NCBI GenBank assembly: GCA_049516875.1
Contig: JBEKSS010000003.1
Location: 128,001 to 192,000, forward strand
From: Candidatus Bathyarchaeia archaeon
Lineage (GTDB): Archaea > Thermoproteota > Bathyarchaeia > Bathyarchaeales > Bathycorpusculaceae
DNA length: 64,000 nucleotides
Direction: 5' to 3'
Numbering within the stretch: the stretch's first letter is position 1; each line of letters starts with the position of its first letter. The translations under genes were made by a program, and so were the position numbers. A model generated the notes under the pieces. It searched no databases. It was not told the DNA's origin and was given only the letters and a program-made list of their open reading frames with translations. Shown here piece by piece: positions 20,212-60,845 of this stretch.

Positions 20212-21063
20212 TTAAGCCTTGGCGCGCGCGAGAAGTCCACTCACTGCATTGATGAGGGCTTCGCATGCGACTCGTCTGACTTCGAGAGAGCCATCGATCT
20301 CTTGGTCCTCGCTCTCTTTCTGCTGATCTCGCATCTGCTCGATGATAGGCTGCTTCTTTCTCTCGTATTTGTCTCGGAGTCTCTGTTGCTCAGCAGTAAA
20401 AGTCTGCACCGCTAATGCGAGATCCCCTTGTGCTGAGTTCAATCTCTGGGTTGCTTCTGCCTCTTTTTGCGCCTTAGCCTTCTTTGAGACAGCTCTGAAG
20501 ATGCCCGTTTTCATTCGAGATGTGCGATCCAGTTCTTCTCTGAGGCCATCAACATTGCTAGACAGACGCTTGATTTCCGCATCCTTCCGCCCTTCAATCT
20601 CCTTCTTGTTAGCGGTATTTTCTTCTTCGATTCGTTCAAGAAGAATTCTATTGTCCGAGAGACTCTTGAATGCTTCCTCACCAGAAGCCTCTTTGCGCCG
20701 TCTTTCCTCAAGCTCAAGCTCAACGTTCGCGAGTATTTGTGAACGCTCCTTCACGAATTGATCATCTACGCCTACGGTGGGACTTGACTCAAACTCGGAT
20801 AGAAGGACCCTTAGATCCACTAGCCAACGGCCGAAATGCTCACTGAACGGAGAAAGGGCAAATATCTGATTCCCTAGGTTACGTAGTCTGTTGAGAGTTC
20901 TGTCCGTAACGTTTGAGGTCGGAACATAATTCTCCTCCGACACGTAGCTACCACTAGATCGACGTTTCTGTCTCCTAGCCTTGGCTTTGGCCTTTTCACG
21001 ACGTGGCATTCCACGTCCTCCGCCAGAGTTTCTGGGTGACCTTGTCCGCGCTTGGTATCCCAT
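20212..21063 (-). CDS. Hypothetical coiled-coil protein with a basic N-terminus
   Basis: R/K-rich N-terminus and long E/K/R/Q heptad region; the last codons (ARAKA) are encoded by a (CG)n run. Confidence 0.7.
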   Translation of the reverse strand: MGYQARTRSPRNSGGGRGMPRREKAKAKARRQKRRSSGSYVSEENYVPTSNVTDRTLNRLRNLGNQIFALSPFSEHFGRWLVDLRVLLSEFESSPTVGVDDQFVKERSQILANVELELEERRRKEASGEEAFKSLSDNRILLERIEEENTANKKEIEGRKDAEIKRLSSNVDGLREELDRTSRMKTGIFRAVSKKAKAQKEAEATQRLNSAQGDLALAVQTFTAEQQRLRDKYERKKQPIIEQMRDQQKESEDQEIDGSLEVRRVACEALINAVSGLLARAKA

Positions 21064-21240
21064 GAACAAAACCTCTTGCATTTGAGCTATTTAGGAGTGT
21101 CTGTTTTGTGTTATGCCGACGATTGCCGAAAGGCTGCAGACTTCACTAAACAAAAGGAATCAAACATTCATAAATGAAAGCAAATCCATAAGAATATGAA
21201 GAAGCACATGTTTTCAGACCATACGGAATGATACGTTAAC

Positions 21241-21663
21241 ATGACAATGAAACCAAAACCGCCCAGAAGAACTGTAAGAATAGTTTTAGACTCGAACGCA
21301 CTGTTCGTTCCAATTCAACTTAAGATTGACATTTTCCAGGGTCTGAAAACGCTGCTTAACAGAAACTTTGAGCTTGTGCTCCTCAAGCCGATTCAGCAGG
21401 AACTGGAGAGACTCGCAAGGGAAGGGTCTCCGCAAATACAGAAAAAGGCATCGTACGCTCTGAAACTCGCCGAAAAGTGTACGGTAGTCGGCGTGAAAGA
21501 TGAGTCAACCTCACCGGACGACGTAATTCTTCAAACTGCCAGCAAATGGAACTGCCCAGTTTTCACTAACGACAGAGAGCTCAGAAAGAAGCTAAGGAAT
21601 ATAAATGTGCCAGTCATTTATGTGAGACAAAAGTCACGTCTAGAGATTGACGGGAGGCTATAA
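21241..21663 (+). CDS. PIN-domain protein (Fcf1/Utp24-like, DUF188)
   Basis: IVLDSNAL, QELERL, PDDVIL, FTNDRELRKKL; usual position between eif2g and rpoE1. Confidence 0.9.
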   Translation: MTMKPKPPRRTVRIVLDSNALFVPIQLKIDIFQGLKTLLNRNFELVLLKPIQQELERLAREGSPQIQKKASYALKLAEKCTVVGVKDESTSPDDVILQTASKWNCPVFTNDRELRKKLRNINVPVIYVRQKSRLEIDGRL

Positions 21664-21664
21664 C

Positions 21665-22279
21665 CTGTTTAAACTTGTAACGTTAGAAGACACGATTCGG
21701 ATTCCGCCTGAAACATTCGGCAACCCGCTTGAAGCGGTTGGGCATCAACAAGTCAAGACAAAGTACGAAGGGATCGTCGGCGAAGAACTGGGCTACGTCC
21801 TCGCTGTGATCGACGTGAAGGTCAGCCCCATAGGAAAGATAATTCCAGGCGACGGCGCCACGTTTCACAAAGTCAACTTTTCACTATTGACATTCTACCC
21901 CAAAATCCAGGAAGTCGTGGAAGGCGAAGTCGTGGAAATCGCTGATTTCGGTGCTTTCGTCCGAATCGGACCCATCGACGCCCTGCTTCACGTTTCCCAG
22001 CTTATGAACGACTTCATTTCATATGATGAGAAACAAGGCGTCCTAATGGGCAAAGAGACACGGCGAAAACTCGCGAGCGGCGACCAAGTTCGAGTCCGCA
22101 TCACGGCAGTTTCACTCGGCAAAGCAGGAAGCTCCGGAAAAATAGGCGTAACAGCCAGACAGCCCTTCCTGGGCAAACTAGAATGGATAGAATACGACCT
22201 GCAGAAAATCAAGGAAGAGGCAGAGAAGAAACCCGCACAGAAACAGGAAACACCCCCGAAAAAGGGTGGGTCCAAATGA
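21665..22279 (+). CDS. rpoE1: DNA-directed RNA polymerase subunit E' (Rpo7)
   Basis: EDTIRIPP, IIPGDGATFH, EVVEGEV, FGAFVRIGPIDALLHVSQ, RQPFLGKLEWI; probable CTG start at 21665 (ORF-track alternative is TTG at 21647). Confidence 0.95.
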   Translation: MFKLVTLEDTIRIPPETFGNPLEAVGHQQVKTKYEGIVGEELGYVLAVIDVKVSPIGKIIPGDGATFHKVNFSLLTFYPKIQEVVEGEVVEIADFGAFVRIGPIDALLHVSQLMNDFISYDEKQGVLMGKETRRKLASGDQVRVRITAVSLGKAGSSGKIGVTARQPFLGKLEWIEYDLQKIKEEAEKKPAQKQETPPKKGGSK

Positions 22280-29684: not shown

Positions 29685-30560
29685 TCACTTGAAGTTGATT
29701 TGTTCAGCTACATATTCGGGGATTTTCACTGTTCCCATGAGTATCGGCTTTTGATGGCAATCGCTTCCCCCAGTCATGATTAGCCCACGTTTTTTTGCAA
29801 ACTCCACATAATGATTCGTTGTTAGGGCGTCGTTTCTGGAGTGCCAACACTCTACGCCATTAATGTATCCTAAAAATGATTCTTCTATTATCTTTGTCTG
29901 TTCAGGCAGCGATTTAGTCAGCGTCACAAGTGAGGTTCCATGGGGATCGTTGGGGTGAGCTAACACTATTATTCCTCCAGCGTTTCTCACCAGTCTCGAA
30001 GCCTCGGTAATGTAAAGAGGATACTTGGGAACGTCGCATTTCACAAGATACTTGTCAAAAGCCTCTTGTTTGGTTCTGACAATCCCTTTCCGCACTAAAT
30101 AGTCCGCTATGTGAGGCCGTCCAACCACGCCGTCAACGGAACGCTGAATCTCCCTAAAATCCTTCTGCGTCAACTTTTCAATTCCCTCTTTTTCAAATTC
30201 CGCATTAACATTATCCAAGATTTTGGCAGCTCTTTCCTCTCGATATTCCGCGATTTCTTGAAGTTTGTCCTTTAACTCCTTATTTCTTACGTCAAATTGA
30301 TAACCCAACAAATCTAACGATATCGATTTACCCTCGTTGTATCTGGGATGCGAGAAGGTTACATTCAATTCAACCCCAGAAACATAACGTATTCCGTTTT
30401 TTCCCGCCAAAGCCATGGCTTTCTCTTGACAGCCGATCGAGTCGTGGTCTGTAATCGACATCAACCCGATATTTCTGATCTTGGCTTCCTTAACAATTTC
30501 CTCAACGGTCAAGTTTCCGTCTGAACAACTTTTTGAATGAATATGCAAATCTATTATCAT
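29685..30560 (-). CDS. PHP-domain phosphoesterase (TrpH/YciV-like)
   Basis: DLHIHS..SDG, ITDHD, GVELN, GRPHIA, LAHP, GGSDCH. Confidence 0.9.
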   Translation of the reverse strand: MIIDLHIHSKSCSDGNLTVEEIVKEAKIRNIGLMSITDHDSIGCQEKAMALAGKNGIRYVSGVELNVTFSHPRYNEGKSISLDLLGYQFDVRNKELKDKLQEIAEYREERAAKILDNVNAEFEKEGIEKLTQKDFREIQRSVDGVVGRPHIADYLVRKGIVRTKQEAFDKYLVKCDVPKYPLYITEASRLVRNAGGIIVLAHPNDPHGTSLVTLTKSLPEQTKIIEESFLGYINGVECWHSRNDALTTNHYVEFAKKRGLIMTGGSDCHQKPILMGTVKIPEYVAEQINFK

Positions 30561-30577
30561 GATAAAACGAGGTCCAA

Positions 30578-31180
30578 TTACCTTTTTTCCATCCCGATAA
30601 TGTACCAATCCTCAGGAGGATCATGTTCAGTGTCGACAGTCAAGTGCAATATTTTGAGTTGCGGATATCTCTGTTTCAAATCGTTCAAGTCGACAGGTTC
30701 AAATTTCTTCTTGTTGTTAAGATAAGCTTCCCTAGTTAAGGCGTTTGACTCATAGTTCTCTTTGGTTCTTCTAAGAATCCTCGCAATTGACACTTCTTCA
30801 GAGCAGTGAGTCTGAAGTATGGCAAAAGTCATGTTGTACTTTGCAGCTATCGCGGCGGCACGTCTTCGCAATTCTTGGGTTACAAAAGTAGCATCTAATA
30901 TTACGCCTTTATCCTTCTTTGCAAGGTCTTCTGCTCGGCGAAACGTCTCATCATAGACAAGCTCTCGTTTGCTCATGTTTGACGCAACTTTTTCGTCAAA
31001 AATGTTCTCATTCTTGAGAACTTCGAGTCGGATCAAATCGGTTCGAAGAATGGGGTATCCCTTGATTTTTGAGACCTCCTCGGAGGTCTCTGTTTTCCAT
31101 GTTCCTGGAAGCCCGCATGTGATCAGCAGAGTTCTGGGCTCTAACTCGGCCTTGACAAACTCGGCAAAAGGTTCCCTCAA
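30578..31180 (-). CDS. P-loop kinase, AAA_33/COG0645-like
   Basis: CGLPGTWKT Walker A variant, RTDLIR, VILDATF; matches the C-terminal half of Rv2004c-type proteins. Confidence 0.85.
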   Translation of the reverse strand: MREPFAEFVKAELEPRTLLITCGLPGTWKTETSEEVSKIKGYPILRTDLIRLEVLKNENIFDEKVASNMSKRELVYDETFRRAEDLAKKDKGVILDATFVTQELRRRAAAIAAKYNMTFAILQTHCSEEVSIARILRRTKENYESNALTREAYLNNKKKFEPVDLNDLKQRYPQLKILHLTVDTEHDPPEDWYIIGMEKR

Positions 31181-31472
31181 CTGGACATACCCTTACATCA
31201 AGTTTAGACAAAGCAAAATTAAACCTTTGCGGCAAGAAACGGTTTGGACCTGTATGGAACTAGTAATAACACGTTTTGCAGACAGCAGATTCGCAGTGTC
31301 ATTTCTAATGTTTCATCAGTTTTTTCCGCGGCATCTAAGCCTGCGGTTTCCGCACTTCTCTTAGTGTTGATTGGAGAGGTTTTGAGCTTTGGTCCGCGCG
31401 CTGCAGGGATATCCGAACTCGTCGATTCTCTCTTCAAGGCAAGTACGTTTCAAAGGAACAGGGGGCGTGGTT

Positions 31473-32480
31473 CTAAACTACATCAAAAAAACTTGATTGG
31501 GTCCCGCTCTTCCTGCCGACCTCAGCTAGCATTATCTTTTCCAGCACTTTCTGAGCGCACGCCACAGGCGAACACTTCGTCGTGTCCAACGTTATTTCGG
31601 GATTAGATAGTGGTTCGTACGGTTGCCCCACTCCCGGAACTGTCGGCGCCTTGCCCTTCTTGGCCCGCTCGTAGATTGATTTCGGCGCATGATGGGTTCT
31701 TGCCCTTCTGCCTTCGCGCTGCACGCAGACCTTTAATGAGCATTCCAGATAGACTTCAATGAACACCGAGATTCTCTTTCTAGCGTTCTCGCGGTAACGC
31801 CTCAGGTTGCCAGTGGCGTCGATAACCACGTTCACGCCGTTCTGTGTCAAGAGCTCGGCAATATAGACGAGGGTTGCATAGACCGTGTCTCGTTCTTCGA
31901 GCGAATAGGACGGCTTGGGGGTTAGAAATCTGCGGAGAGCGTCTGAAGACAAGAGTTGAGCATGAACGCCTTCCTTCTTGAGGAGCTCAAGTATAGCTTC
32001 TGAAACGGTAGATTTACCGCTTCCGGGCAGGCCGGTAACCCAGACACACCAACCATTCTTCGCCACCAACACCATCCTGCGGAAGGGCTTTAACCCTATT
32101 TCCCCCATGATTTCACTTAAATGTTCGTAGGCTTCAACCCTGAAAAGATGACCCTTGCAAGAGCAGTCTGACGAACCGAACCCCATTATGGGACTAGCTA
32201 TTTCGGCCATCCTTTCAGCAACTCTGCACTCTTCAGGCCTTCCAGCTTCCTTGTAGAACACCTTGAGAACTTTTGCTTCACGATTGTTGAGCAGATAGTC
32301 GATGTGCCAAAACTTTCGTTTCACTCTTCTGAGGTGCCGCTCCACTCTTTTCTCCAGGTTGTTCTGAGCCGAACCGACGTATGCATAAAGCCCTTCCTGA
32401 AAACTCTTATCGCCCAAACCGCCAACGCGTACGCTTATGTTCTTGGCTATCGAAACCAGGAGGACATAGATTCCTTTCAT
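31473..32480 (-). CDS. Fusion of a GIY-YIG (DUF123/Uri) nuclease domain and an adenylyl-sulfate kinase-like P-loop domain
   Basis: N-terminal MKGIYVL...YAYVGSA...RH...WHIDYLL...GFGSSDCSCKGHL; C-terminal WVTGLPGSGKST, VYLECSL.VC..R, VPGVGQPYE. Confidence 0.85.
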   Translation of the reverse strand: MKGIYVLLVSIAKNISVRVGGLGDKSFQEGLYAYVGSAQNNLEKRVERHLRRVKRKFWHIDYLLNNREAKVLKVFYKEAGRPEECRVAERMAEIASPIMGFGSSDCSCKGHLFRVEAYEHLSEIMGEIGLKPFRRMVLVAKNGWCVWVTGLPGSGKSTVSEAILELLKKEGVHAQLLSSDALRRFLTPKPSYSLEERDTVYATLVYIAELLTQNGVNVVIDATGNLRRYRENARKRISVFIEVYLECSLKVCVQREGRRARTHHAPKSIYERAKKGKAPTVPGVGQPYEPLSNPEITLDTTKCSPVACAQKVLEKIMLAEVGRKSGTQSSFFDVV

Positions 32481-32496
32481 GCCTTTCTGTCAACGC
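32414..32496 (-). repeat. Direct repeat copy A: 5' end and upstream region of the GIY-YIG gene
   Basis: Aligns to 42303-42385; 64/75 identical over 32422-32496. Confidence 0.85.
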
Positions 32497-32578
32497 TGCC
32501 TTATGATTAACAACCTGATGGTGTTTTCGGCGAATAATCTTATTGTATTATGCTTTCTTCGTGGATGGGAGGATCGTT

Positions 32579-32623
32579 ATGGAGTTTATGGAGGTCGTGG
32601 CCGCAAGGAAGCGCGTCCGCTAG
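32579..32623 (+). pseudogene. N-terminal stub of a nitroreductase-like gene
   Basis: GGAGG SD followed by MEFMEVVAARKRVR*, similar to the MEF.EVI..RRSIR start of nitroreductases. Confidence 0.4.
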
Positions 32624-32817
32624 AAGCACATAAGCTACCGTGCAAACGAATTTAGGAACACGCATGTGCGCTTCTATTTCTGCCTGAGTCTCTAAAACTT
32701 TCGGCAAGCTCTAGGCTTGATGTTGCGAACAAGTTGTACGAAAATCCTTTCGAAACCTTCATAAATGCTGAAGGGTGTTCGAGAAACGCTGAAGAGCGCA
32801 GGAAGAGAACAACAAGG

Positions 32818-34050
32818 ATGGAAAGACGTAGACTTGCAGTATTCGATGTTGAAGGTGTGCTAATTCCTAAAAGGCGCTATCTACTCTTTGAGGTAGGCAG
32901 GAAACTTGGCTTTTCGCAGTTTGCAAGAATAGCTTTATATGGAGTATTCTACGAGCTGGGTCTGATCTCACTGAAATCCGCAATGAAGCATGTGTTCAAG
33001 TTTTTCGAAGGTTTCCCGGCCGATGAGCTTCTTCAGATTTTTAGGCAGATTCCATTATTGCCTGGTGTAAAAGAGGTTTTTAGGAAACTGAGCAGCGCAG
33101 GCTGGAAGACCGCGTTGATAAGCTCTGGGTTGCCAACTTTTGTCGTTCGAGATTTGGCGTCAACGCTTGGCGCTGACTATGCTTTCGGTTTTGAGTTGGG
33201 AACGAAAGACGCTGTTGTGACAGGAGAGATATGGGGAGACACTATTGAGCATGAAGGAAAGCTTACGATTTTGAGGAGGATCTTGGAAACCGAGGGATTA
33301 ACCCCAGAAGACTGCGTTGTGGTTGTAGACGACCGAAATAACGCTCCAATAATGCTTCCAAAGATGCTGAAGATAGGCTACAACCCTGATTTTATGGTCC
33401 GTATGAAAGCGGATTATGTAGTGACTGGGGATCCAATCAAAATCCTTTCCATGATTGAAGGTCAACCGAAAAGCCGAAGTTTGCCAACTAAGAATGATGT
33501 CCTTCGAGAGATCATTCATGCGTCCGGCTTCGCAGTACCCGTTCTTTCGAGTCTGATGGGTGTCTACACCATTGCTTACCTCATCTTGTTCGTGACCGCC
33601 TTCTACGTTATCTCCGAGTTAACAATGATGGAGAAAAGGAGCTTGCCAGTAATCTCGTCAATAACTCGCCATGCCGCCACACCAGAAGAACTCTATGAAT
33701 TCCGCGCCGCACCCGTATTCTTTGCTTTCGGAATACTGCTCACTCTACTCCTTTTCCCACGTCCTGCAAGCAGCGCCGCCATTGTGATATTCGCGCTTGG
33801 AGACAGCACAGCTTCAATCTTCGGAAAAATGTTTGGAAAGAAAATACTCTTTTTTAACAAAGGAAAAACATTAGAGGGTTCACTCATTGGTTTCGCTTTT
33901 GCCTTCTCGGCGGCCGCATTCTTCGTGACCCCGTTGAGGGCAGCATCAGGGGCAGCTGTAGCCATGTTGATTGAAAGTCTGCCATTGCCAATAAACGACA
34001 ACCTGGCTGTCCCATTAGTCACAGGAGCTTTGCTGACTTTCATGCGTTAG
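32818..34050 (+). CDS. Fusion of a HAD (SerB-like) phosphatase and a dolichol/phytol kinase-like membrane domain
   Basis: AVFDVEGVL, LISSG, VVVDDRNN; then REIIHASG, multiple TM segments, ALGDSTASIFGK.FG, KGKTLEGS, INDNLAVP. Confidence 0.85.
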   Translation: MERRRLAVFDVEGVLIPKRRYLLFEVGRKLGFSQFARIALYGVFYELGLISLKSAMKHVFKFFEGFPADELLQIFRQIPLLPGVKEVFRKLSSAGWKTALISSGLPTFVVRDLASTLGADYAFGFELGTKDAVVTGEIWGDTIEHEGKLTILRRILETEGLTPEDCVVVVDDRNNAPIMLPKMLKIGYNPDFMVRMKADYVVTGDPIKILSMIEGQPKSRSLPTKNDVLREIIHASGFAVPVLSSLMGVYTIAYLILFVTAFYVISELTMMEKRSLPVISSITRHAATPEELYEFRAAPVFFAFGILLTLLLFPRPASSAAIVIFALGDSTASIFGKMFGKKILFFNKGKTLEGSLIGFAFAFSAAAFFVTPLRAASGAAVAMLIESLPLPINDNLAVPLVTGALLTFMR

Positions 34051-34141
34051 CGCGCGCGAAAAATAGAAAATTCCGAGAATATTCTGTCAGGGTTCGCCAT
34101 AGAAAAATAAAACAACGCGCGCTAGATATCTCCCGCGCGCG

Positions 34142-34761
34142 GTAAGGGTCTCCTGGCTTGATCAGCACAGGTTCCTTGCCGAAGATTCGCATACCCAGTT
34201 TTTGCTTAATAGCCTCCTTAATTAATTCCTGAAGATGCAATAGAAATTTCTCAAATCCTTCTTCGTCCTTCAACATGTACTCGTAGGCAGTTCTGTCGAT
34301 GAAATGGGTTTTGAGGACGTCAAGGAGCTCTTTTTCGTCACCATTATATTTCTCAAACAGTAATTCCTTCAAGTACACCGACGGCTCTTTTGCCTTGGCT
34401 ATTTTTTGATTTGTATTATTCGTCAACCATGTGATATTCAGTACCGAGTCCAATAGATATGGGGATTCTGAGGCAATGGCCCCTTTAGGGAATATGTGAT
34501 GTTTCTGATATGAAGCTGCATGCCCAACCTCCTTTTTCTCTGCAAAATCCCTTGCATGCTCGAGGAAAAATAAGGATAGAATTCCTTTGTAAATGGCGTG
34601 GTAGTGAGACTCCATCTTTGTTAGATCCAATAAATCTATCTGGCGTCTCTCTTGTTCCACGACGGTGGGAACCTGACTTTCATCATCAAACCACGACATC
34701 AGCTCTTTGTAATGTGCACTCATTGTGCTGTCAACCGCGCCGGAATAGGCGTTGGTAAAAA
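34142..34761 (-). pseudogene. Internal fragment of a DUF262/GmrSD-like protein (C-terminal HNH/DUF1524 region)
   Basis: VFTNAYSGAVDST...HHIFPK...LNITWLTNNTNQKI..KEPSVYL...LIKPGDPY; no N-terminal DUF262 domain; both ends abut (CG)n runs. Confidence 0.7.
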
Positions 34762-35180
34762 CGCGCGCATGTCTGTTTCGAAAATGGTCAAAAATGGTTT
34801 TAATTCCGTTTCGAATTCCCAGAGCCCTGATTGCTTAAAAGAAAATACGAGCATATAGGGAGTACAGAATTGCCCCCAAGCCCGAAGAGAAGAATAAAAA
34901 CCATTTTAGGCCAATTAAGGAACAACCATGCGCGCCAAAAGAAGTTTAGAATAAGAGAGAAAGTAGGGGACGGCAATTTCCTGAGAAAATGACGAGTTAG
35001 TGTCGAGTTTGTTTGAAACAGGTTTTTCCATCATTTTAGGCTTAAACCACTTTCGCAGGTAAGGCGTGAATTCGGTCAGCAACAGGGCTTGGGGGTTTTT
35101 GTGCGCAGGCTGACGTTGAACAGGTACAACTATATAACGGGTCCTGCCAAGTAGTCACTAGTATTGGACCTTGATGTGAG

Positions 35181-35441
35181 TTGTCTGCGAGCATCTCTTA
35201 CGTTCTTGCTAGATTCGCCTTGTTCTTAGAGCCAATATCACCTCGTTTCATCTCTTTCCTGCTTCGAAGAAGACTCAGTGAATGGGAAAGAAAAGGGCTG
35301 ATTGCAGGGTCCAAGACAAAAACACGAAGAATCGGCAAGTTCCACTATAGAATTGAGGTTGATTTGGATTTGACACAGCAACAGGCCAACCGGATATTGG
35401 CGGTGACGCTGGCTCGAGTATTTAGAAGGTTGAGGAGGTGA
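35181..35441 (+). CDS. Small basic hypothetical protein
   Basis: 86 aa; TATATAA near 35131; followed by an SD-linked small ORF. Confidence 0.55.
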   Translation: MSASISYVLARFALFLEPISPRFISFLLRRRLSEWERKGLIAGSKTKTRRIGKFHYRIEVDLDLTQQQANRILAVTLARVFRRLRR

Positions 35442-35445
35442 TGTG

Positions 35446-35601
35446 ATGGTTGAAGAGAAGAAGGGACACGCAAAAATCACCCTCGAAATCGAGTTAAACG
35501 AGGCCTTGATGGAAATCATGAAAGAGGGCATGAAGAACATGCCTCAAATGGGCGGAATGATGCGAAGGATGATGCAAGGAAGAAACAAAGAGAGCGAATA
35601 G
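35446..35601 (+). CDS. 51-aa Met-rich small protein
   Basis: Strong SD GGAGGTG; MVEEKKGHAKITLEIELNEALMEIMKEGMKNMPQMGGMMRRMMQGRNKESE*. Below the ORF-track length cut-off. Confidence 0.65.
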   Translation: MVEEKKGHAKITLEIELNEALMEIMKEGMKNMPQMGGMMRRMMQGRNKESE

Positions 35602-35805
35602 CGTCAGCAGCCCAGCACAACTTCACGCGCTGTTTTTGATGTCTGTTCAACAGTCGAGATGCCTCTGCTACCGCTGGGTATCGCTCAGCCGCCGCACGTG
35701 ATGCAGCAGAAAAGCTGTCGATAAGTCCCAAACGAGTAGTCCTTCTTGCCCGGTGCCTTTCAGAGGGGAAAATGCCGCTTTTTTTCCGGCGCCGAACGGG
35801 CCGCG

Positions 35806-36111
35806 TTACTGTTTTTCGGGCTCTCTCTTCTCTGTTTCCTTTGTCTCGTTCGCGCTTGTTATTTCTTCTATTGGTTTTGGTGGTGGTGTGGTGGCCATGG
35901 TCCAGCCTATCCACGCGCCTATTCCCATTACTGCGGTGAAGGCGATGAACACTGGTATCGCTATGACCCAGAATTGGGCGTTAGAGAGCCATTGAACTTG
36001 CACTCCGAACACCGAAAGCCATTGAGGATAGAAGAGTGTGACTAGGTAGAAGAGGGCTACTAGAACGCAGACAACAGTAATTGCCGCACCGAGTGCTTGG
36101 TCTCTGTTCAA
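35806..36111 (-). CDS. Small 2-TM membrane protein, WIGWTMATTPPPKPIEE family (paralog 1)
   Basis: SD GGAGGTGA with TTG start; two TM helices; motif shared with 44160-44558. Confidence 0.85.
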   Translation of the reverse strand: MNRDQALGAAITVVCVLVALFYLVTLFYPQWLSVFGVQVQWLSNAQFWVIAIPVFIAFTAVMGIGAWIGWTMATTPPPKPIEEITSANETKETEKREPEKQ

Positions 36112-36218
36112 GAAAGTTTCACCTCCGTGACGTGTTTGGCGATGTGTATTTGTGTTGTTAATGTGAACAATAATGTTTATTAAGATTCACGATTCAGTTC
36201 TTGACTTGATGAAAGATT

Positions 36219-36662
36219 ATGGCAATGCAAAAGGCAACCATGGCATCAGTCGTCGTAATGGTGGTCATGGGCTTAATGGTGAGCGCCCTGGGTGCACTTG
36301 TTGCAACTCGCACGATTTCTAACAGCGGAAGCATTACAGCAGTAGGAGTAGGTGTATACTCAGACAATGCTTGCGCAACTGCGCTCTCCACTATCGGTTG
36401 GGCAACCCTGAACCCCGGCGATGTAAAAACGTACACGATGTACGTGAGGAACGAGGGCACTGTGCCAGTAACCTTGAACATGGCAGTACGTAACTGGAAT
36501 CCCGCATCCGCTTCGAGCTACATTACTTTGACTTGGAACAAAGAGAATTACGTGCTGCCAGCCGGCCAAGTCGTCCAAGCAGTGCTGACCCTCACGGTCT
36601 CATCAGGCGTCAGCGGAGTCACAACGTTCAGCTTCGACATAACCATAACAGGAACACAGTAG
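36219..36662 (+). CDS. Secreted or membrane-anchored Ig-like hypothetical protein
   Basis: Hydrophobic N-terminus; T/V/S-rich beta domain (YVRNEGTVPVTL...FSFDITITG). Confidence 0.8.
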   Translation: MAMQKATMASVVVMVVMGLMVSALGALVATRTISNSGSITAVGVGVYSDNACATALSTIGWATLNPGDVKTYTMYVRNEGTVPVTLNMAVRNWNPASASSYITLTWNKENYVLPAGQVVQAVLTLTVSSGVSGVTTFSFDITITGTQ

Positions 36663-36881
36663 TTCCATACGGGGCGCGCAACAGCAGTAATATCGGAAAC
36701 CAGAGATGGTGCTGAGAATCAAGAAGGGCAGCTTCTTTTTGTTTCTGTTAGTGATTCAACGACTGACGAGTACCGGCGCGTTGGTTCCTGTCGCGCGCGG
36801 TTGAAACGACTCGCGCGACCTCTATGTTGACGTTAGCATTCCATAAATGCGAGTGGCCACTTCCTCCTGCGGCGAGTTTCG

Positions 36882-36950
36882 TTACGCTGCAACTATTATC
36901 TCGTAAATGCGTATGGCGACTGTTGCCAAGAAGAGCAGGCCCGTTGCTAG
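36882..36950 (-). pseudogene. C-terminal stub of a paralog of the small membrane protein at 37573
   Basis: LATGLLFLATVAIRIYEIIVAA* compared with MGILFLTTVTIHIYTIIAST*; starts at the palindrome CTAGCGCGCGCTAG (36947-36960). Confidence 0.6.
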
Positions 36951-37041
36951 CGCGCGCTAGGTTTAAGGTACAAACGAATTAGTTGAAGGACCGCCGAAAA
37001 TTTTAAATCGGCATCTACAATATGTACTTGTGGTGTTTTAT

Positions 37042-37785: not shown

Positions 37786-37788
37786 TGT

Positions 37789-44159: not shown

Positions 44160-44558
44160 CTAGGTCTTCCGCTTCTTTTCGGGCTTCTTCTCTTCTCCCA
44201 CCTTAGGCTGCTCAGGCTGCTCCTCTTCAACGGTCGGCTTCCCTTCCATCGTCGGCTTCTCTTCCGCCACAGGCTTCTCCTCAACCGTCGTTTTCTGCTC
44301 TGTTTCCATCTCACTCGTAATCTCTTCGATGGGCTTCGGAGGCGGTGTCGTGGCCATCGTCCAACCTATCCAAGCGCCTATGGCCAATATGGCGATGAAC
44401 GCTATGAACACTGGAAGCGCTACGAGCGTGAACGAGATATGCCACACGCCGGAGTCCAACCAGTACCCCCAGTAGAACAGTCCGAGACTGTAGAGCACGC
44501 CTATTACCACGCAGACCGTGCAGATTAATCCGCCAATCGCTTGATCTTTGCTAACCAT
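44160..44558 (-). CDS. Small 2-TM membrane protein, WIGWTMATTPPPKPIEE family (paralog 2) with EEKP repeats
   Basis: SKDQAIG...PVFIAF...GAWIGWTMATTPPPKPIEEITS followed by about four 6-aa (V/A/M)EEKP-type repeats. Confidence 0.88.
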   Translation of the reverse strand: MVSKDQAIGGLICTVCVVIGVLYSLGLFYWGYWLDSGVWHISFTLVALPVFIAFIAILAIGAWIGWTMATTPPPKPIEEITSEMETEQKTTVEEKPVAEEKPTMEGKPTVEEEQPEQPKVGEEKKPEKKRKT

Positions 44559-44632
44559 TCACATATCACCACATATTAGCCCTTTTTATGGCTCTAAGAC
44601 CTTTTAAAGTTTACCGTACCTCTTGATATTTG

Positions 44633-45889
44633 CTAACTTGTTCCCGACTCCCACGTCGTCAGATACGTCTTCTGCTCCTCGGTCAACTCGTCTATCCTAA
44701 TTCCCATCGCGTCAAGCTTCAGCCTCGCCACTTTCTCGTCAATCTCCTTGGGCACCGGGTAGACCTTCGGCTCCATCCTTCCCGCCTTGGCCAAGTGTTC
44801 CACGCAGAGAGCCTGGTTCGCGAAAGACATGTCCATGACCTCCGACGGATGGCCCTCCGCCGCCGCCAAGTTGACAAGCCTGCCCTCGGCCAGAAGGTAC
44901 AGTCTCCTGCCATCCTTGAGAGTGTACTCGTCCAGGTTGGGCCTTATGTTCCTCTTCGACGTTGCAAGCTCTTCAAGGTACTTCGGGTTAACCTCAACGT
45001 TGAAGTGTCCGCTGTTGGCCAACAACACCCCGTCCTTCATCCTCAGCATGTGCTCCTTCCTGATGACGCTCGTGTCGCCCGTCGCCGTGACGAACACGTC
45101 GCCCACGACAGCGGCCTCCGCCATGGGCATCACACGCAGACCGTTCATAGCCGCTTCAAGAGCCCTCGTGGGGTTCACCTCGGTGACTATGACGTTTGCG
45201 CCCATCCCCTGCGCTCTCAGGGCTATGCCCCTTCCGCACCAGCCGTAGCCGCAGACAACGAAGTTCTTGCCCGCGAAGAGAACGTTTGTGGCCCGTAGAA
45301 TGCCGTCCAGAGTGCTCTGGCCGGTTCCGTAACGGTTGTCGAACAGGTACTTCGTGTAAGCATCGTTCACGGCGATTATCGGGTACTTGAGGGCTCCGTC
45401 CTTCTCCATGGCTCTGAGCCTTAAGACGCCGGTTGTGGTTTCCTCCGTGCCGCCTTTGACGCCCTGTAGGAGTTCTGCTCGTTTGCTGTGGAGTGTGCCC
45501 ACGAGGTCGGCTCCGTCGTCTAGGGTGATGGTGGGCTTGGTGTCCAGCACTTTTTCTACGCACCAGTAGTACTCGTCGGTGGTTTGGACGCGCCAGGCGT
45601 AGACTCTGGTTCCTTCTCGTGCCAGGGCGGCTGCGACGTTGTCCTGTGTTGAGAGGGGGTTCGACCCGCACAGTGCGACGTTTGCTCCGCCCGCGAGGAA
45701 TGTTTCGACGAGAAATCCGGTTTCTTTGGTCACGTGCAAACAGGCGGCCAGCATCAAACCCATGAGGGGCTTCTCCTTGGCAAACCTGTTTTTGATCTGG
45801 GCGAGAACGGGCATGTGTTTCGACGCCCATTCGATTTGTAAGCGTCCTTCAGGAGCCAAACTCGCATCCTTAACCTTGAAGTCCTCCAT
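44633..45889 (-). CDS. ahcY: Adenosylhomocysteinase
   Basis: [76 protein letters not shown]. Confidence 0.97.
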
Positions 45890-45939
45890 AAACGTTTCAC
45901 TCTCCCTATGTCCATTTGCCGTTTGCTATATAAAACTAA

Positions 45940-46028
45940 GCGTCTAAAAGTCTGCAGCTTGTGATTGTCATGTTGGGTTTCGAGGCCTTGTGTTTGAGTA
46001 CTCAATTCGTGTTTTTTTTGAGGCTCAA
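45940..46028 (-). repeat. Inverted copy of the 43795 repeat unit, directly upstream of the ahcY TATA box
   Basis: Reverse complement reads TTGAGCCTCAAAAAAAACACGAATTGAGTACTCAAACACAAGG...AACATGA...ACTTTT.GAC.CT, colinear with 43795-43885. Confidence 0.8.
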
Positions 46029-46351
46029 TTCGTTGAGCAACGGGCGCTTTGAGGGAATAGGGGCGATTGCGTTTTTTTTTGTCTTTGGTGTTTTTTTCTG
46101 CATCTTTTTTCGTCTAAAGCGGTTCGTAGCTTGAGTGATGGATGTTATGGTGTCTGGAGGCCGCGGGGAGAAGTCTGGCTGCGTTGCATGAGTCATGGTG
46201 GACGGCGAGTTTGTTGGAGTTCATGTGGATGCTGTGACAACGGTTGATAACTCTGAAGCTTGGCATGTTAAGGCAAACTTTTATGGGTGAAATAGTCAAC
46301 GGAGATCAGCTTCCAAGTTTGCAAAGAGGAGCATGGAACCTATCAGGTTAA

Positions 46352-46558
46352 GATAATGGACAAACAGGCACCATAACCGTCGTTCCGGAGTTGCCATCCC
46401 TGTTAGGCCTGCTAATGTTGTTAGCATTGTTGACTGCATTAGTGGTCTATGCGAAGAGAAGATCCAGAGTGAAACAAGGATTACCCAAAGAAGGTTCTAA
46501 GACTGACGGAACCATCTTCCCATCAGCTTCTTCAGCAGACGATGCTGTTTACGTTTGA
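46352..46558 (+). pseudogene. Orphan PEF-CTERM-like sorting tail of a lost surface protein
   Basis: After an in-frame TAA: GQTGTITVVPELPSLLGLLMLLALLTALVVYAKRRSR (motif, TM helix, basic cluster). Confidence 0.55.
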
Positions 46559-46875
46559 AAATTGCTTAGCGTCCGCTTGGGTATGCTTCTCCCCTAGATA
46601 GAAAAAGCGAGCGCGCGCACTTTTTGCCGACTCTACTTTAGCATGTTACTCATGTTTTTGCAGAACTTGCACGCGATCAATCACTCTTCTCTATTCTATC
46701 TGTTTTGTCCTTGATTCCACTGTAAGCTTCGTGCGCTGTGAAGAGAAGGCGGCTGATTGTTAGTCGGTGATCTGGTTGTAATCTGTTCTTTTCACATTCG
46801 AGTTGAGGTGTCTTCCGGGCAACCTTCTTTTTAGTTGCACTTGAGCGGGTCCTTTGGAGGGCTTGCTACGGTGTA

Positions 46876-48252
46876 TCATTTTGTTGCGAATTCTTTGAGT
46901 TCTTTGAGTTTGTGTATCTCAATCAGGTTGCTTGCGTGTTTTCGAGAGGTTCTGAAGGCAGCCGTGAACAGTATCGTTTCCTCGTCGTTGATAAGGCCTG
47001 TTGATTGAAGCTTCTTTGCAACCGCCAGAATTCGGTCGTTCTCTTCGCGGTAGTCCATTTGCATTGTGGATACGCCGAAGGCCAGTTCAAGTTGCCTCTT
47101 GACTTGCGCGTCGGGGGTCACGGCGATTATCGGCTGGGTTATCTTGAATCTTGAGATCATTTTGGCTGTGTAGCCTGATCTGGTCAGGGTGACGACTTTG
47201 CCTACGGGCATCTCTTGGCATATTCTTTGAATTGCCCTGCTTATGGTGTCTGAGATGTTGATGAAACCCTCGTCTTCGACGTGGTTTTCGACTGCCTTTT
47301 CAGTTTCGACCGCGATTCTGGACATCATCGAGACGGCTTCTACTGGGTACTGTCCTACTGCTGTCTCGCCTGAGAGCATCGTTACTTCTGTTCCGTCCAG
47401 TATTGCGTTGGCTACGTCGCTGACTTCGGCTCTGGTCGGGATTGGGTTGTGCATCATTGATTCTAGCATTTCTGTTGCCGTCACAACGGTCTTTCCTCTC
47501 TGGTTGCACTGTCTGATTATTGATTTCTGGACGAGCGGAACCTTTTCAGGTTCTATTTCAACGCCTAAGTCGCCTCTTGCCACCATGATTCCGTCTGCAG
47601 TGTTCAGGATTTCGTTGAAGTTGTTGACGCCTTCATAGTTCTCTATCTTGGCGATGATTGCGCCCTTGCACCGGTGAGCCTCTTTCCTGAGGTTTTCTAC
47701 GTCTCGAGCGTTTCTTGTAAAAGAGAGAGCTATGAATTCAACGTCCCTTTCCTTTGCCAAGCCTAATATCTCGCGGTCCCTGCCTGAGAGGGTTGGAACT
47801 GCAAGTCTCTTGTAGGGGATGTTAACTCCCTTTCCGTCATCTATTTCTCCAGGGGTCAAAGCCACTAGTTTTAGGGTGCTCTTCTTTTTTTCGGCGATTT
47901 TCAGTCTCAGCTTTCCGTTGTCAACCATGACATTGTCGCCGACATCCACGTCGTCGTAGAAATTCCTGCTGAAGCTTATTTTCTCGCGTTTGAAGCCGGC
48001 TTCGAAAACGTCTCCTTTGTCGATGGCCCTCTTGTTTTTTACTCTGAGCCTTATTTCAGGCCCTTTAATGTCAACTATTACCGGGATATCTGCGACTTTG
48101 CGAACGGTGTCAATCATGTTCTTGTATTGGTCGAGTGTTCCATAGGCAGTGTTTATTCTGGTGCCATTCATTCCCGCACGATACATTTTCTGAAGCGTTT
48201 CCTTAGAAAGGCTGGTCGGACCAATCGTGCAGACGATTTTGGTTTTCTTCAA
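46876..48252 (-). CDS. pyk: Pyruvate kinase
   Basis: KTKIVCTIGP, DIKGPEIR, KGVN, IAKIEN, GIMVARGDLGVE, ATEMLESM..NP.PTRAEVSDVANA, MLSGETA.G.YP. Confidence 0.96.
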   Translation of the reverse strand: MKKTKIVCTIGPTSLSKETLQKMYRAGMNGTRINTAYGTLDQYKNMIDTVRKVADIPVIVDIKGPEIRLRVKNKRAIDKGDVFEAGFKREKISFSRNFYDDVDVGDNVMVDNGKLRLKIAEKKKSTLKLVALTPGEIDDGKGVNIPYKRLAVPTLSGRDREILGLAKERDVEFIALSFTRNARDVENLRKEAHRCKGAIIAKIENYEGVNNFNEILNTADGIMVARGDLGVEIEPEKVPLVQKSIIRQCNQRGKTVVTATEMLESMMHNPIPTRAEVSDVANAILDGTEVTMLSGETAVGQYPVEAVSMMSRIAVETEKAVENHVEDEGFINISDTISRAIQRICQEMPVGKVVTLTRSGYTAKMISRFKITQPIIAVTPDAQVKRQLELAFGVSTMQMDYREENDRILAVAKKLQSTGLINDEETILFTAAFRTSRKHASNLIEIHKLKELKEFATK

Positions 48253-48410
48253 AAACCCATCTCCGATGCCCAGCTTCAAAGATACTGTTGATCTTTGCTT
48301 TAACGCTAGCGTTTAGTCTTCAGTGGCACGTGTTAGAAGCATTTCTTTCTCTATCGCAACTTTCCAAAAGTCATTTATATTATGGCTGCAAGAGTGAAAA
48401 ACGATCTTGA

Positions 48411-48716
48411 ATGAAGTTCTTGATAATTGCGAAAGTGAGACAGACTCCTGTGGATGTCTGGGCTAAGCTGCTCCCAGCCCACTTCAAGTATCTTGACGAG
48501 TTGGAGAGGAAGAAGACTATCGAGGTTTCGTACCATCTGATTGGTCATCAGGGCGATGCTTTGATTGTCAACGCGAATTCAGATGAAGAGTTGGCGAGCA
48601 TAATAGGTGAAGATCCACTGTTCTTCTACACCGAAAGAGAAGTCTACCCGCTTACGACGCGTGAGGTTCATAAACGAAGACTGGAACAGATGTTCGGAAA
48701 GACCCGCCCGCGCTGA
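48411..48716 (+). CDS. Muconolactone isomerase-like / YciI-fold small protein
   Basis: MKFLIIAKV...IVNANSDEEL..II.EDPL......EVYPL pattern. Confidence 0.65.
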   Translation: MKFLIIAKVRQTPVDVWAKLLPAHFKYLDELERKKTIEVSYHLIGHQGDALIVNANSDEELASIIGEDPLFFYTEREVYPLTTREVHKRRLEQMFGKTRPR

Positions 48717-48827
48717 GACGGCTTTGAATATCTTCTACACTTGGCGATGCTGTGCTGTTCCACGATGGGATGTAGATTCGGAAATCATTGGATTCCAATT
48801 CGCACCTGTAGTTGAGCGGGTGGTTGC

Positions 48828-49559
48828 GTGGTTATTCGGGTTGATCTTGAGTTGTGGGCGAGAGATGCGGGGAAAGCTGTTGGCCGAGGAGACTTGATCA
48901 TTGTTATCGATGCTTTGAGGTCTGGAACGAGCGTCTTGAACGCGTTGACCAACGGTGCAGAGGCTGTGATTCCGGTAGTAAGTCTGAAAGAGGCTTACAG
49001 GCTTCGCAGTCAACATCCAGAATATCTCCTAGCGGGTGAGAGAGGGGGACACAGGCCCGAGGGCTTTGGCCTTGGAAATTCACCTTTAGAATTTACGCGT
49101 GAAAAGGTTGCTGGTAAGAGCCTGGTGATGACGACCACGAGCGGCACGGCGGCTTTGGTTAAGTCTCAGGAGGCGAGATGGGTTTTGGTTGGAGCATTCT
49201 TGAATGCTGGGGCAGTGGCGGAAAAAGCTGAGGAGATAACTGCGAAGGAAAGGGTAGGGGTGTCGTTTGTCTTGGCTGGAGAAAAAGGCGGTTTTTCTTT
49301 GGAAGACTTCCTGTGTGCAGGCGCAATCGCTGAGGGTTTTACCGCAGGGGGTGCTGGTTTTTCAGACAAGGTTCAGGCGGCGCTGTTGGCGTTCAGACAG
49401 GCAGCAAGCGATTTGACCGGAAGCGTCATGGGGGCGGAGCACGCGAAGCATTTAGTCAGACTCGGGTTCAAGGGGGACGTGGATTTTGCCTGTCAACTGA
49501 ACGTGTTGCGAACAGTGCCGATATACAGCCTTGGCAGAATAACGTTGCAAAGTAGATAA
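48828..49559 (+). CDS. comB: 2-phosphosulfolactate phosphatase family protein
   Basis: IVIDALRSGTS, LAGERGG....FGLGNSP, MTTTSGT, GAFLNA, FSLEDFLCAG. Confidence 0.9.
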   Translation: MVIRVDLELWARDAGKAVGRGDLIIVIDALRSGTSVLNALTNGAEAVIPVVSLKEAYRLRSQHPEYLLAGERGGHRPEGFGLGNSPLEFTREKVAGKSLVMTTTSGTAALVKSQEARWVLVGAFLNAGAVAEKAEEITAKERVGVSFVLAGEKGGFSLEDFLCAGAIAEGFTAGGAGFSDKVQAALLAFRQAASDLTGSVMGAEHAKHLVRLGFKGDVDFACQLNVLRTVPIYSLGRITLQSR

Positions 49560-59200: not shown

Positions 59201-60075
59201 CAGGCACCCTGACCGATTCGAGCAGCAACGGAGTACCCAGCAAAACCGTCACTCTGACCTTCACTAGACCCAATAGTTCAACAATCCTCGTAAACGTAAC
59301 GACTAGTACCTCGGGCTCCTACACGTACACGTTTGCCCCTGATGCCATTGGACAATGGAGCGTTCATTCCACATGGGCCGGAGATGCAAACTATCAACCA
59401 TCCACAAGTCCAACCCAACAGTTCACAGTCGAGCCCCGCCATGTGACTTTTGTTTCTGCTGGAACAGGTTCGGGGACAACAAGCAACCCATCGCCAGCAT
59501 ATCCTTCAGGCTTAGCAGCCAACGACCTAATCCTATTACAAGTTACCGTAAGAGACACAACCAATACTCCAACAACACCAGCTGGCTTCACTTTACTGTA
59601 TGGACCCGACTCCACAGGAACAGGAAGACAGTGGATCTACTACAAGTTTGCCACTGGAACTGAATCTGGAACAATAACCATCACCATCAGCGGTAGCAAT
59701 TGCAAGATAGCGAGAATGTATGCTTTCAGAAACGTGGCTCTCTCAAGCTTCACTGAAGGCGGAGGCTTTGGTTCTGGAACTAGTAGGACAATTTCAGCAC
59801 AGTCAGTAACTACAACTGGTACTGGACGACTTACCGTTTCATTTGTCTTTGTGAACAATGATAACTCTGTTGGAAGCTTTACGGGAGAAGCAGGCGGAGA
59901 CTGGACTGAAGCTGTGTCGGAATTCACAACGAGCGCTGGAAGTAACGGGTGTGTTCAGCTTCAAACTGCAACTATGGCAAGTGCTGGAACAATTTCTGGT
60001 GGAAGCTACGATATGGGTTCTGGCAACTCAGACCCTTGGGGCGTAAGAGCGTTTGCACTAATACCCTCGCCCTAA
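56253..60075 (+). pseudogene. Giant pilin-adhesin (pilin N-terminus, InlB-B-like repeats, Ig-like domains), frameshifted by a 55-bp duplication
   Basis: KA|VSTVVAVLLMIAIAV pilin N-terminus; repeated Y.YGDVV.LTA.P..GWSFSGWSGD units; removing one 55-bp copy joins the two ORFs into 1255 aa. Confidence 0.85.
57285..57394 (+). repeat. Perfect 55-bp tandem duplication
   Basis: 57285-57339 is identical to 57340-57394 (GTGGGCTGGAGC...ATGAACCCTG). Confidence 0.95.
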
Positions 60076-60101
60076 ACTATGAACTCTCAGAAAAGCTAAA
60101 A

Positions 60102-60129
60102 GGACGACGACCCAATCGTCCATTTTTTT
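60102..60129 (+). terminator. Hairpin plus T-tract after the adhesin gene
   Basis: GGACGA-N8-TCGTCC followed by ATTTTTTT. Confidence 0.55.
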
Positions 60130-60845
60130 GTTAACTTGAAATTCGCATGAGAATATTGTCTTCTTGACTCTTTGCCAATGATGATTTACCTATGATAACT
60201 CAAGGCTTGAACTGCTCTACCTGCAGAATAGCATAAACAGCAAAAGCATTTCAAGCCTCCAGACGCTTAACAAGTAGCACTCTCTTGCGCCAGAACTTTA
60301 TCCGTTGTTCCAAACACGCGCGCGCTCTACTAGTTTGATGCCATAGGATATCTCTCTTCCAGACAGCCATCCATTCAAGAGATGGCGATCATACTTTACT
60401 GATTCGTAGCCAGTTACTGACAATTGGTAGAGTATCCGCACGCGTCACATCTGTCACATGATCGATCGATGAACTGGGATCTCCAAGGGGGTGGAAGGGT
60501 ATGCAAAGATAGTATATATACTAGATTCGCGCGAGCTAAGATTGGGCAATGATTGCGAATGTGGCAAAGCAAGCACTGTAAACACCTACTTCACTGGCGT
60601 CCCGATTTTTTCATCATTTTTTAAGTTCAAAATTGGCTGTTCTCTCTAGCTATTTTTATGTCAAAATATGGAATCTTGAATTTTGAAGCGACCACACCCT
60701 GGAGATTGTTCTTGAAGCAAGAGTGCAATTCCTCTGGGTTTCTATTATTTGCCAACTATTCTTAAATACGCAAAGGACAGAGTTATACGCGGTGTCATAC
60801 GTCATGAATCATGCGTTCAACGGGAGAATTGTATTCTCTGCGAAC

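Follow-up and report, generated by a model that had tools for sequence, protein, structure and literature searches.

The DNA considered here (the window) is a stretch of 64,000 nucleotides from the genome of a Candidatus Bathyarchaeia archaeon (assembly GCA_049516875.1, contig JBEKSS010000003.1, positions 128,001 to 192,000). Along it recurs a short word of alternating G and C, and within it lies a miniature inverted-repeat transposable element (MITE) of a family of IS5-type transposons whose ends begin with the same letters. The window holds exactly 11 alternating C/G runs of 8–9 nt, each at the place given in the original prediction, and no further run of at least 8 nt. By the list of open reading frames (ORFs) they are found in the intervals between ORFs, at the ends of ORFs or within short ORFs of doubtful status, which bears out the intergenic placement claimed for them. 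The octamer GCGCGCGC occurs 9 times; in 100 dinucleotide-preserving shuffles of the window its mean count was 0.80, with a maximum of 4, and none of the 100 reached 9. The runs and the features adjoining them are as follows, with the strand where the feature has one.

20222–20230: GCGCGCGCG run, 10 nt inside the 3′ end of the minus-strand ORF 20212–21081
32611–32620: broken octamer GCGCG-TC-CGC; strain contig L057 (98% identical) has an intact GCGCGCGC by a 2-bp indel, as also in sequencing run X5
32650–32671, minus strand: inverted-repeat end of the IS5-like/MITE family, standing alone and a little decayed (ATTTAGGAACACGCATGTGCGC), immediately upstream of the HAD gene
32734–34050, plus strand: HAD-hydrolase/cytidylyltransferase-like gene; its TAG stop shares its G with the start of run 34050
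34050–34058: GCGCGCGCG run after TTA; strain contig L059 has there TTA, then GCGCGC-ATGG... and a full MITE
34134–34141: CGCGCGCG run, a GCGCGC core between C and G; the GmrSD-like fragment ends directly beside it
34142–34768, minus strand: GmrSD-type gene fragment (PF03235, PF12102), residues 631–839 of ~1003, 73% identical to protein P0001
34763–34935: 173-bp MITE with 44-nt inverted repeats starting GCGCGC, one of ~18 copies in the genome
36792–36799: CGCGCGCG run in ORF-poor DNA
36950–36957: CTA-GCGCGCGC-TAG run; a strain indel of 27 bp (36959–36985) begins directly after GCGCGCGCT
37478–42356: 4.9-kb strain-variable segment, with 430 bp instead in L057 and sequencing run X5
37487–37494: GCGCGCGC run, 10 bp inside the left edge of that segment
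39483–39491: GCGCGCGCG run between short ORFs
40036–40043: GCGCGCGC run; sequencing run X8 has the same left flank plus GCGCGC, then TAGCGTATTCCTAAG (a transposon inverted-repeat end), then window position 42345
40042–42344: 2.3-kb strain-variable segment holding a nucleotidyltransferase (40438–41706, minus) and a HEPN ORF (41708–42106, minus)
42295–42303: CGCGCGCGC run in an 82-aa ORF, 42–54 bp before the right edges (42345, 42357) of the two strain-variable segments
46611–46618: GCGCGCGC run in the spacer downstream of pyruvate kinase
60317–60325: CGCGCGCGC run in the spacer 60076–60722

The runs had been said to sit where homology stops, and this holds both in the window and genome-wide, at strain joints, at the end of the GmrSD-like gene and at the ends of gene fragments. 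The GmrSD-like ORF corresponds to residues 631–839 of 1003-aa PF03235/PF12102 proteins, and its DNA match extends from 34142, directly beside run 34134–34141, to 34768 at the tip of the MITE (GCGCGC at 34763–34768); the proposed bounding of this fragment on both sides is exact. The HAD gene stops at run 34050 as proposed; Pfam does not read it as the kinase that it was taken for, the matches being to HAD and, weakly, to a cytidylyltransferase. Two further gene stubs could not be upheld. The supposed GIY-YIG stub ending at 42295 has no Pfam match at E ≤ 1, and the ORF that follows 36947–36960, described as a membrane-protein stub, carries an ATP-cone domain (37030–37290). This ATP-cone ORF of 86 aa stands alone in ORF-poor DNA, 73 bp past run 36950, and is possibly another gene fragment. 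The nucleotidyltransferase remnant that was thought to start after run 40036 is an ORF (40438–41706) beginning 395 bp away, but the 2.3-kb strain-variable segment that holds it does begin inside the run. The nucleotidyltransferase (Polbeta/NTP_transf_2, 422 aa) and the HEPN ORF (132 aa) lie end to end at 40438–42106, an arrangement that resembles an MNT-HEPN toxin–antitoxin pair; a strain in sequencing run X8 lacks the whole 2.3-kb segment. No recombinase gene came up in the window, which was not searched exhaustively for one, and of the Rfam families none but one tRNA was found there.

Three metagenome contigs carry the HAD gene and allow the runs to be compared between strains. The first, L057, is 97.9% identical to the window over 14.7 kb, and 9 of the 12 runs of at least 6 nt in the aligned part are identical in it; of the remaining three, one has a different base beside it, one a 5-bp change by a 6-mer and one a deletion next to it. 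Three of the nine L057 indels touch CG runs: 2 bp at 32616, which makes or breaks an octamer, the 5-bp change at the 6-mer 36812, and the 27 bp at 36959 that start directly after GCGCGCGCT. In addition, 430 other bases replace window positions 37478–42356. The window allele of this segment has runs 10 bp inside its left edge and 54 bp before its right edge, and in the L057 allele CGCGCG-A-GCGCGCG stands 10 bp short of the point where homology is regained. At the position of run 46611, the loci of relatives (L008–L014) have no run.

In L059 the HAD gene is 97.8% identical but lies in another genomic context. After the shared ...GCGTTA the window has GCGCGCGCG and L059 a complete MITE (GCGCGC-ATGGGTGTTCC...). 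Contigs assembled from four sequencing runs (Logan) were compared with window positions 30000–49000, the joints alone, and neither depth nor gaps in coverage, serving as evidence. Of the 15 joints shown (13 more are not shown), five inside the MITE and four linking repeated elements were set aside and six kept. Among these six, the joint 34050 to 35128 (sequencing run X8) starts in a run, that from 35680 to 36966 (X8) ends 9 bp past a run, and that from 37477 to 42357 is the L057 allele. The joint 40041 to 42345 (X8) likewise starts in a run, and its two sides are separated by 15 letters which, with the preceding GCGCGC, read as a transposon end, 13 of the 15 positions matching one end subtype. 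The remaining two have no run nearby. Four of the 12 endpoints thus fall within 10 bp of a run, against ~0.16 expected by simple arithmetic from the ~1.3% of the stretch so placed. Runs 34050 and 40036 are each represented in another strain by the end of an element, with the left flank shared.

As a separate observation on the HAD gene, in the 96%-identical strain (L059 9228–11610) it lies with the MITE in a 2.4-kb insertion beside a tRNA gene. At the boundaries of this insertion stands a 13-nt direct repeat (TTTCGGAACTCTT) rather than a run; the corresponding site in the genome under study (contig C5, 88700) is empty, and the repeat was not found near the HAD gene in the window. The insertion looks like a small integrated element or cassette.

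The genome to which the window belongs (G000) is a peat Bathyarchaeia metagenome-assembled genome (MAG) of 2.43 Mb in 20 contigs, with 47% G+C, 97.5% completeness and 5.4% contamination. It contains 416 runs of at least 8 nt, or 11.0 per 64 kb, and the window is typical of its genome rather than special within it. The word GCGCGCGC is the commonest octamer of the genome, with 447 sites against 23–31 expected, an excess of 15–19-fold that confirms genome-wide the enrichment over chance proposed for the window; with both strands counted there are 894 against 47–61 under 0th-, 1st- and 3rd-order models. In the other phase, CGCGCGCG is found at 223 sites.

The phase and length of the runs are not those of a simple alternating tract. 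There are 503, 204, 240, 112, 56, 5 and 1 runs of 6, 7, 8, 9, 10, 11 and 12 nt, respectively, a non-monotonic series, and 8 in total longer than 10 nt in any phase. The exact 8-mers comprise 212 GCGCGCGC and 28 CGCGCGCG, and the preference for the GC over the CG phase is found also in exact 6-mers (345:158) and 10-mers (47:9), so that the GC-phase size classes of 6, 8 and 10 nt stand at 345:212:47. The odd lengths and the CG-phase words fit a (GC)n core beside a chance C or G, which makes the unit (GC)3, (GC)4 or (GC)5. TA follows 32% of (GC)4 ends, the two sides being independent of each other. A profile of 25 nt to either side of the 447 sites has information only at positions −2/−1 and +1/+2, where A and T are favoured; a larger repeat unit was rejected on this ground. 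When the outward flanks of all runs of at least 6 nt were grouped, 77 of 2242 fell into families, the largest of which (47) is a MITE end.

The word is concentrated outside genes. With ORFs called by a greedy heuristic, 351 copies of GCGCGCGC lie in 475 kb of non-coding DNA where 4.5 are expected (78-fold), and 92 in the 1.96 Mb of ORFs of at least 100 aa where 20 are expected, an excess of 4.6-fold or less; a genome-wide count of coding against non-coding copies, which had been suggested as a check, therefore comes out clearly for the non-coding side. The non-coding share of the runs is 67–90% across four ORF-length masks. Convergent, divergent and tandem spacers have run densities of 0.80, 0.69 and 0.68 per kb, and a promoter or terminator role was rejected since the density is equal in all three types; above 50 bp the density is independent of spacer length. 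Variants that differ from the word at one position are enriched in non-coding DNA too, with transitions exceeding transversions at the inner positions, and the related purine–pyrimidine tracts noticed earlier fit decayed copies of the word.

The GCGCGC letters are also the tips of a transposon family. About 18 copies of the MITE were collected in the genome, with GCGCGC at both ends and the consensus GCGCGCATGCGTGTTCCTAAAATGG; TA flanks 14 of the 18 listed left ends and 12 of the 18 right ends. A search for empty sites at nine elements of this genome and one of G004 found none, and TA may therefore belong to the inverted repeat rather than to a target duplication. Related end subtypes have GCGCGC-NNGCNTGTYCC in common, and the tips are kept in four diverged subtypes. 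This pattern ends both elements of 1.1–1.9 kb and MITEs of 173–185 bp. Full elements of 1.1–1.9 kb in G002 and G003, two genomes of the same genus, encode proteins of 328 and 348 aa with matches to DDE_Tnp_1 (PF01609, E = 1e-23 and 4e-13) and DUF772 (PF05598), by which the transposase is classed as IS5 type. By way of these elements the transposon of the present genome was located at C7:36805–37906, a single copy with the same tips and an open frame of 333 aa. A self-BLASTP of the genome found no multi-copy transposase; the repeated families were glycosyltransferases, proteases and an integrase. In the outgroup G023, where the octamer occurs 3 times, a related element (41% protein identity) has CGTGC at the place of GCGCGC, inverted at both ends, which indicates that the tip is part of the inverted repeat and not a target duplication.

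Two candidates for longer elements were discarded: the pair of ends at C1:76833–78803, 1971 bp apart, contains no transposase ORF, and the supposed long element at C1:53994 measures only 110–124 bp. In several MAGs the IS5-like/MITE family has ends no more than ~130 nt from the end of a contig (G004:C19:2–18, G004:C16:110–126, G002:C8:103–119, G002:C9:103–119 and G014:C50:41–57), which suggests that assemblies are broken by these repeats and that copy numbers are underestimated.

The octamer and the element family are confined to one and the same genus. The comparison covered 31 genomes, five of the genus (G000–G004) and 26 others of the family and order, the nearest relatives coming from peat and soil metagenomes. 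All five genus genomes hold GCGCGCGC, with 168–646 copies each or ~112–239 per Mb at rounded genome sizes. Among the 26 others, 23 hold 0–14 copies and the remaining three 30 (G013), 53 (G024) and 227 (G018), the reversed control word being just as common in G018 (209). The element end pattern occurs 35, 7, 24, 3 and 69 times in G000 to G004 and 0–1 times in each of the other 26, and its reversed control never. The five genomes are kin, and do not count as independent cases.

Breakpoints are enriched at runs in the genome as a whole. We took as gene-fragment ends the limits of TBLASTN matches of at least 50% identity outside ORFs of at least 150 aa, with the query cut by at least 40 residues. 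Of 138 such ends, 10 are no more than 5 bp and 11 no more than 10 bp away from a run of at least 8 nt; random places in the same segments gave averages of 2.2 and 3.4, and none of 500 randomisations reached the observed values. One captured piece of 278 bp (C7:14348–14625) matches an internal repeat of a contig C14 gene at ~81% identity and is flanked by CGCGCGCGCG and GCGCGCGCG, and the source gene has no runs there. Contig C1 of G004, with 387 kb and a median protein identity of 85%, served for a comparison of gene order, in which spacers of 50–400 bp were used. Where the flanking genes are adjacent in both genomes, 4 runs were found in 13.0 kb (0.31 per kb), as against 49 in 41.5 kb (1.18 per kb) of non-syntenic spacers (Poisson P = 6e-4). 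Of 82 aligned syntenic spacers, four contain runs (five in all) in G004, none does in G000, and no run is shared. Paralogous copies spanning a run are available for 4 of the 416, too few and too diverged to separate insertion from substitution.

The genome also carries the genes for end joining. At C9:90150–93944 (locus L092, 4150–7944) lie side by side a primase-polymerase (Prim-Pol) of 285 aa matching the LigD type (E = 3e-82), Ku (269 aa, E = 2e-40) and a 466-aa ligase with a 3′-phosphoesterase domain; a DUF72 gene adjoins the set. Ku is found in 4 of the 31 genomes, G000, G002, G004 and G010. The first three have the most octamers and element ends, and G010 has 7 octamers. No gene matching the C5 methyltransferase family PF00145 was found in the genome; the search covered PF00145 and PF01555, and neither Vsr nor other methyltransferase families. 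Matches to PF01555 (N4/N6) are mostly Trm14/TIGR01177-like, that is tRNA/rRNA-methylase-like, with one weak adenine-type match, and the family is present in 28 of the 31 relatives, with or without the motif. There was no match to Y1_Tnp (PF01797).

From these data we consider that the runs are the joined tips of IS5-family transposons and MITEs left by break repair, an account to which we would give an even chance. The (GC)3–5 words would derive from the tips of these elements, whose inverted repeats begin with GCGCGC, mostly next to TA. Loss of an element or of its interior, by excision, by abortive gap repair or by deletion from an end, would be followed by rejoining of the two self-complementary tips, which would serve as microhomology; a tip overlap of 6, 4 or 2 bases would give TA-(GC)3, TA-(GC)4 or TA-(GC)5-TA. 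Compared with an excision footprint, made of terminal bases plus a duplication, (GC)4 amounts to 4 + 4 tip bases, with the TA seen at about a third of the ends. The Ku/LigD operon, present in three of the five genus genomes, may seal such breaks, and the same breaks may lose, capture or swap neighbouring DNA, which would place scars at the edges of gene fragments and of strain-specific segments. Scars would survive only where a small insertion does no harm, between genes. We infer that the elements made the scars and were not inserted into pre-existing runs, and likewise the cut sites of the transposase and the part of Ku/LigD in the joining; the last of these is drawn only from co-occurrence in three of the five genomes. 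The account is the simplest way to explain together the phase, the size classes, the TA flanks, the non-coding bias, the non-conserved positions, the restriction to the genus, the allelism with element ends and the breakpoints. Of the four origins put forward in the original prediction, self-complementary microhomology left by end joining fits best, with the addition that the GC letters are probably transposon tips. The proposal of sites for a DNA-shuffling system was right in part: there is a DDE transposase family with TA-GCGCGC ends, with a MITE in the window and a transposase elsewhere in the genome.

A number of observations weigh against the joined-tip account. TA is found at only 32% of (GC)4 ends, on both sides in 23 of 212, and at just 1 of the 11 window runs on both sides. 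In both allelic cases, 34050 and 40036, only the left flank matches, and no site was found that shows the element, an empty allele and a scar between two collinear flanks. The strains were compared through assembled contigs and not reads. Runs within 100 bp of recognisable element interiors number 8 against 7.5 expected, that is, they are not enriched, and 447 scars beside ~20 living elements demand many excisions; G003 holds 253 octamers with only 3 element ends. Ku was found neither in G001 (77% complete; 168 octamers) nor in G003 (93% complete), both of them octamer-rich. Most of the fragment ends, 127 of 138, are not at runs, the gene calls are heuristic, and the synteny test rests on one contig of one relative. 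The best-aligned case between species is GCGCGCGC replacing CTTGGGC, 8 for 7 and not a clean insertion of TA plus 8, and the four paralogue comparisons also resemble changes of a patch.

The order of events may instead be the reverse, with (GC)3–4 a hotspot of breaks or recombination or a preferred insertion target of the IS5-like elements, which might for instance duplicate the 4 bp GCGC. Since the word is palindromic, TA-GCGCGC...GCGCGC-TA can equally be read as an insertion into TA-GCGCGCGC-TA; in both allelic cases GCGCGC is shared and divergence begins after it, and indels occur inside or beside runs even where no element is visible. We nevertheless think this rather unlikely, since it leaves the origin of 447 copies unexplained, the tips are 6 + 6 in nearly all copies and conserved over four diverged end subtypes, and the inverted CGTGC of the G023 element assigns the position to the repeat. 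The end-joining machinery might also act independently of any transposon, the Ku/LigD polymerase adding or copying alternating GC at any end so that ends can pair. The complete operon, the captured gene piece flanked by runs that its source lacks, and the runs at strain breakpoints would all agree with this; it gives no reason for the TA flanks or for the word being identical to the element tips, and G010 has Ku with 7 octamers while G001 and G003 have octamers with no Ku found, and we regard it as highly doubtful. A further reading is that the words are working joints and not passive scars: either a palindromic tip of 6–8 nt would suffice for the transposase to excise and transfer whatever DNA lies between two words, or Ku/LigD would glue any broken ends by way of self-complementary GC tails. 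We consider this improbable, somewhat less so than an origin by GC addition alone. If it were true, every cutting and rejoining of DNA across the genus could be read off from the runs, which would themselves have produced the mosaic of gene fragments and strain cassettes that they bound, such as the GmrSD piece, the piece at C7:14348–14625 and the 2.3-kb nucleotidyltransferase/HEPN segment.

A process or selection that drives sequence towards GCGCGCGC, linked to methylation or biased repair as in an iterated palindrome of the HIP1 kind, would account for a GCG-NN-CGC octamer being the top word at 15–19-fold, for its being common to the whole genus and for the excess of inner transitions among one-off variants. 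It is hard to reconcile with near-confinement to non-coding DNA, with runs that are depleted in syntenic spacers and never shared there between G000 and G004 (none of five), and with the methyltransferases, there being no PF00145 match and PF01555 being spread over the relatives regardless of the motif among the families searched; this idea, also put forward at the outset, found no support and we judge it quite unlikely. The suggestion of Z-DNA hotspots fared no better. Structure-prone (CG)n tracts that grow by slippage and break would explain why alternating purine–pyrimidine runs adjoin indels, but would have no phase preference and a smooth decay of length; the 212:28 bias, the favoured TA flanks, the uneven length series with its stop at 10 nt and the restriction to one genus make such a microsatellite very improbable. 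Finally, an artefact of assembly or binning might be thought of for a MAG with 5.4% contamination compared with assembled contigs only. Two metagenome contigs from other assemblies have these runs at identical places, and runs occur also in Logan contigs of several studies; all five genus genomes are enriched, and a word of 8–10 nt is shorter than assembly k-mers. We therefore hold an artefact to be scarcely credible.

Scars of this general kind are familiar from eukaryotes. Excision of DDE cut-and-paste elements such as Tc1/mariner and hAT leaves a few terminal bases between the copies of the target duplication; these footprints accumulate where they are harmless and mark old insertions, and their repair by end joining sometimes brings deletions or captured filler. 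The present case differs in its archaeal host and in an IS5-family IS/MITE system, in tips that form a perfect palindrome, so that one word in three sizes includes the commonest octamer of the genome, and in that no full series of occupied, empty and scar sites is seen. The window element at 34763–34935 and the ~18 others are ordinary MITEs with parents of ~1.1 kb encoding a DDE transposase; the solo (GC)n runs have no element interior and are therefore not MITEs themselves. REP/BIME sequences with their RAYT are likewise short palindromic intergenic repeats in hundreds of copies. REPs are imperfect hairpins of 20–40 nt associated with a Y1 transposase, unlike the word here, which has 6–10 nt, no PF01797 match and no conserved flank beyond 2 nt to either side.

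HIP1 (GCGATCGC) of cyanobacteria is the closest in form, an octameric GCG-NN-CGC palindrome, hyper-abundant throughout a lineage. It lies inside genes as well as between them, and its sites are kept at orthologous positions. In contrast, the word described here is almost only non-coding, its positions are not conserved and no matching methyltransferase was found in searches with PF00145 and PF01555. HIP1 has been linked to orphan methyltransferases (PMC4390886), and a term search of that paper did not find GCGCGC, though its supplementary tables might list other words. In the literature searched we found no description of GCGCGCGC as an iterated palindrome or of such scars in archaea, and nothing on Bathyarchaeota, MITE and transposase together. 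Ku/LigD end joining occurs in bacteria and in a few archaea, among them Methanocella paludicola, and the same set (Prim-Pol, Ku, ligase, phosphoesterase) stands side by side here. We know of no genome-wide sequence signature of this pathway.

Scars from transposon ends are in themselves known; here they would form the top octamer of an archaeal genus and mark rearrangement junctions. If the joined-tip account is true, a transposon family and an end-joining pathway that is rare in archaea wrote one word hundreds of times in an uncultured Bathyarchaeia genus. This would be the first genome-wide evidence, as far as we know, that Ku/LigD repair operates in archaea under natural conditions. The word would then be a cheap marker of past insertion and excision sites, of deletion and gene-capture junctions and of strain-variable cassettes in metagenomes, and it would explain for annotation why gene fragments here end at GC runs. 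It would also mean that a HIP1-like signal, a top palindromic octamer, can come from mobile-element ends and not from methylation.

Several other features came to light. A second small repeat family containing GAGTACTC (3-fold over-represented) lies at window positions 43794–43872, 43937–43990 and 45951–46035, flanking an S-adenosylhomocysteine hydrolase gene (44633–45889) in inverted orientation, with many copies in G000, G002 and G004. Contig depth at 43314–44581 is ~7–10 times that of the surroundings in sequencing runs X4, X5 and X17, with a peak in X8 too. Two contigs of the genome, each of ~5 kb, have 59% (C18) and 39% (C19) G+C against 46–49% elsewhere, and may be mis-binned or mobile DNA. 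The 667-aa protein encoded on the minus strand at window positions 18085–20088 combines a C39-like peptidase domain with a dockerin type I domain, an unusual pairing for an archaeon.

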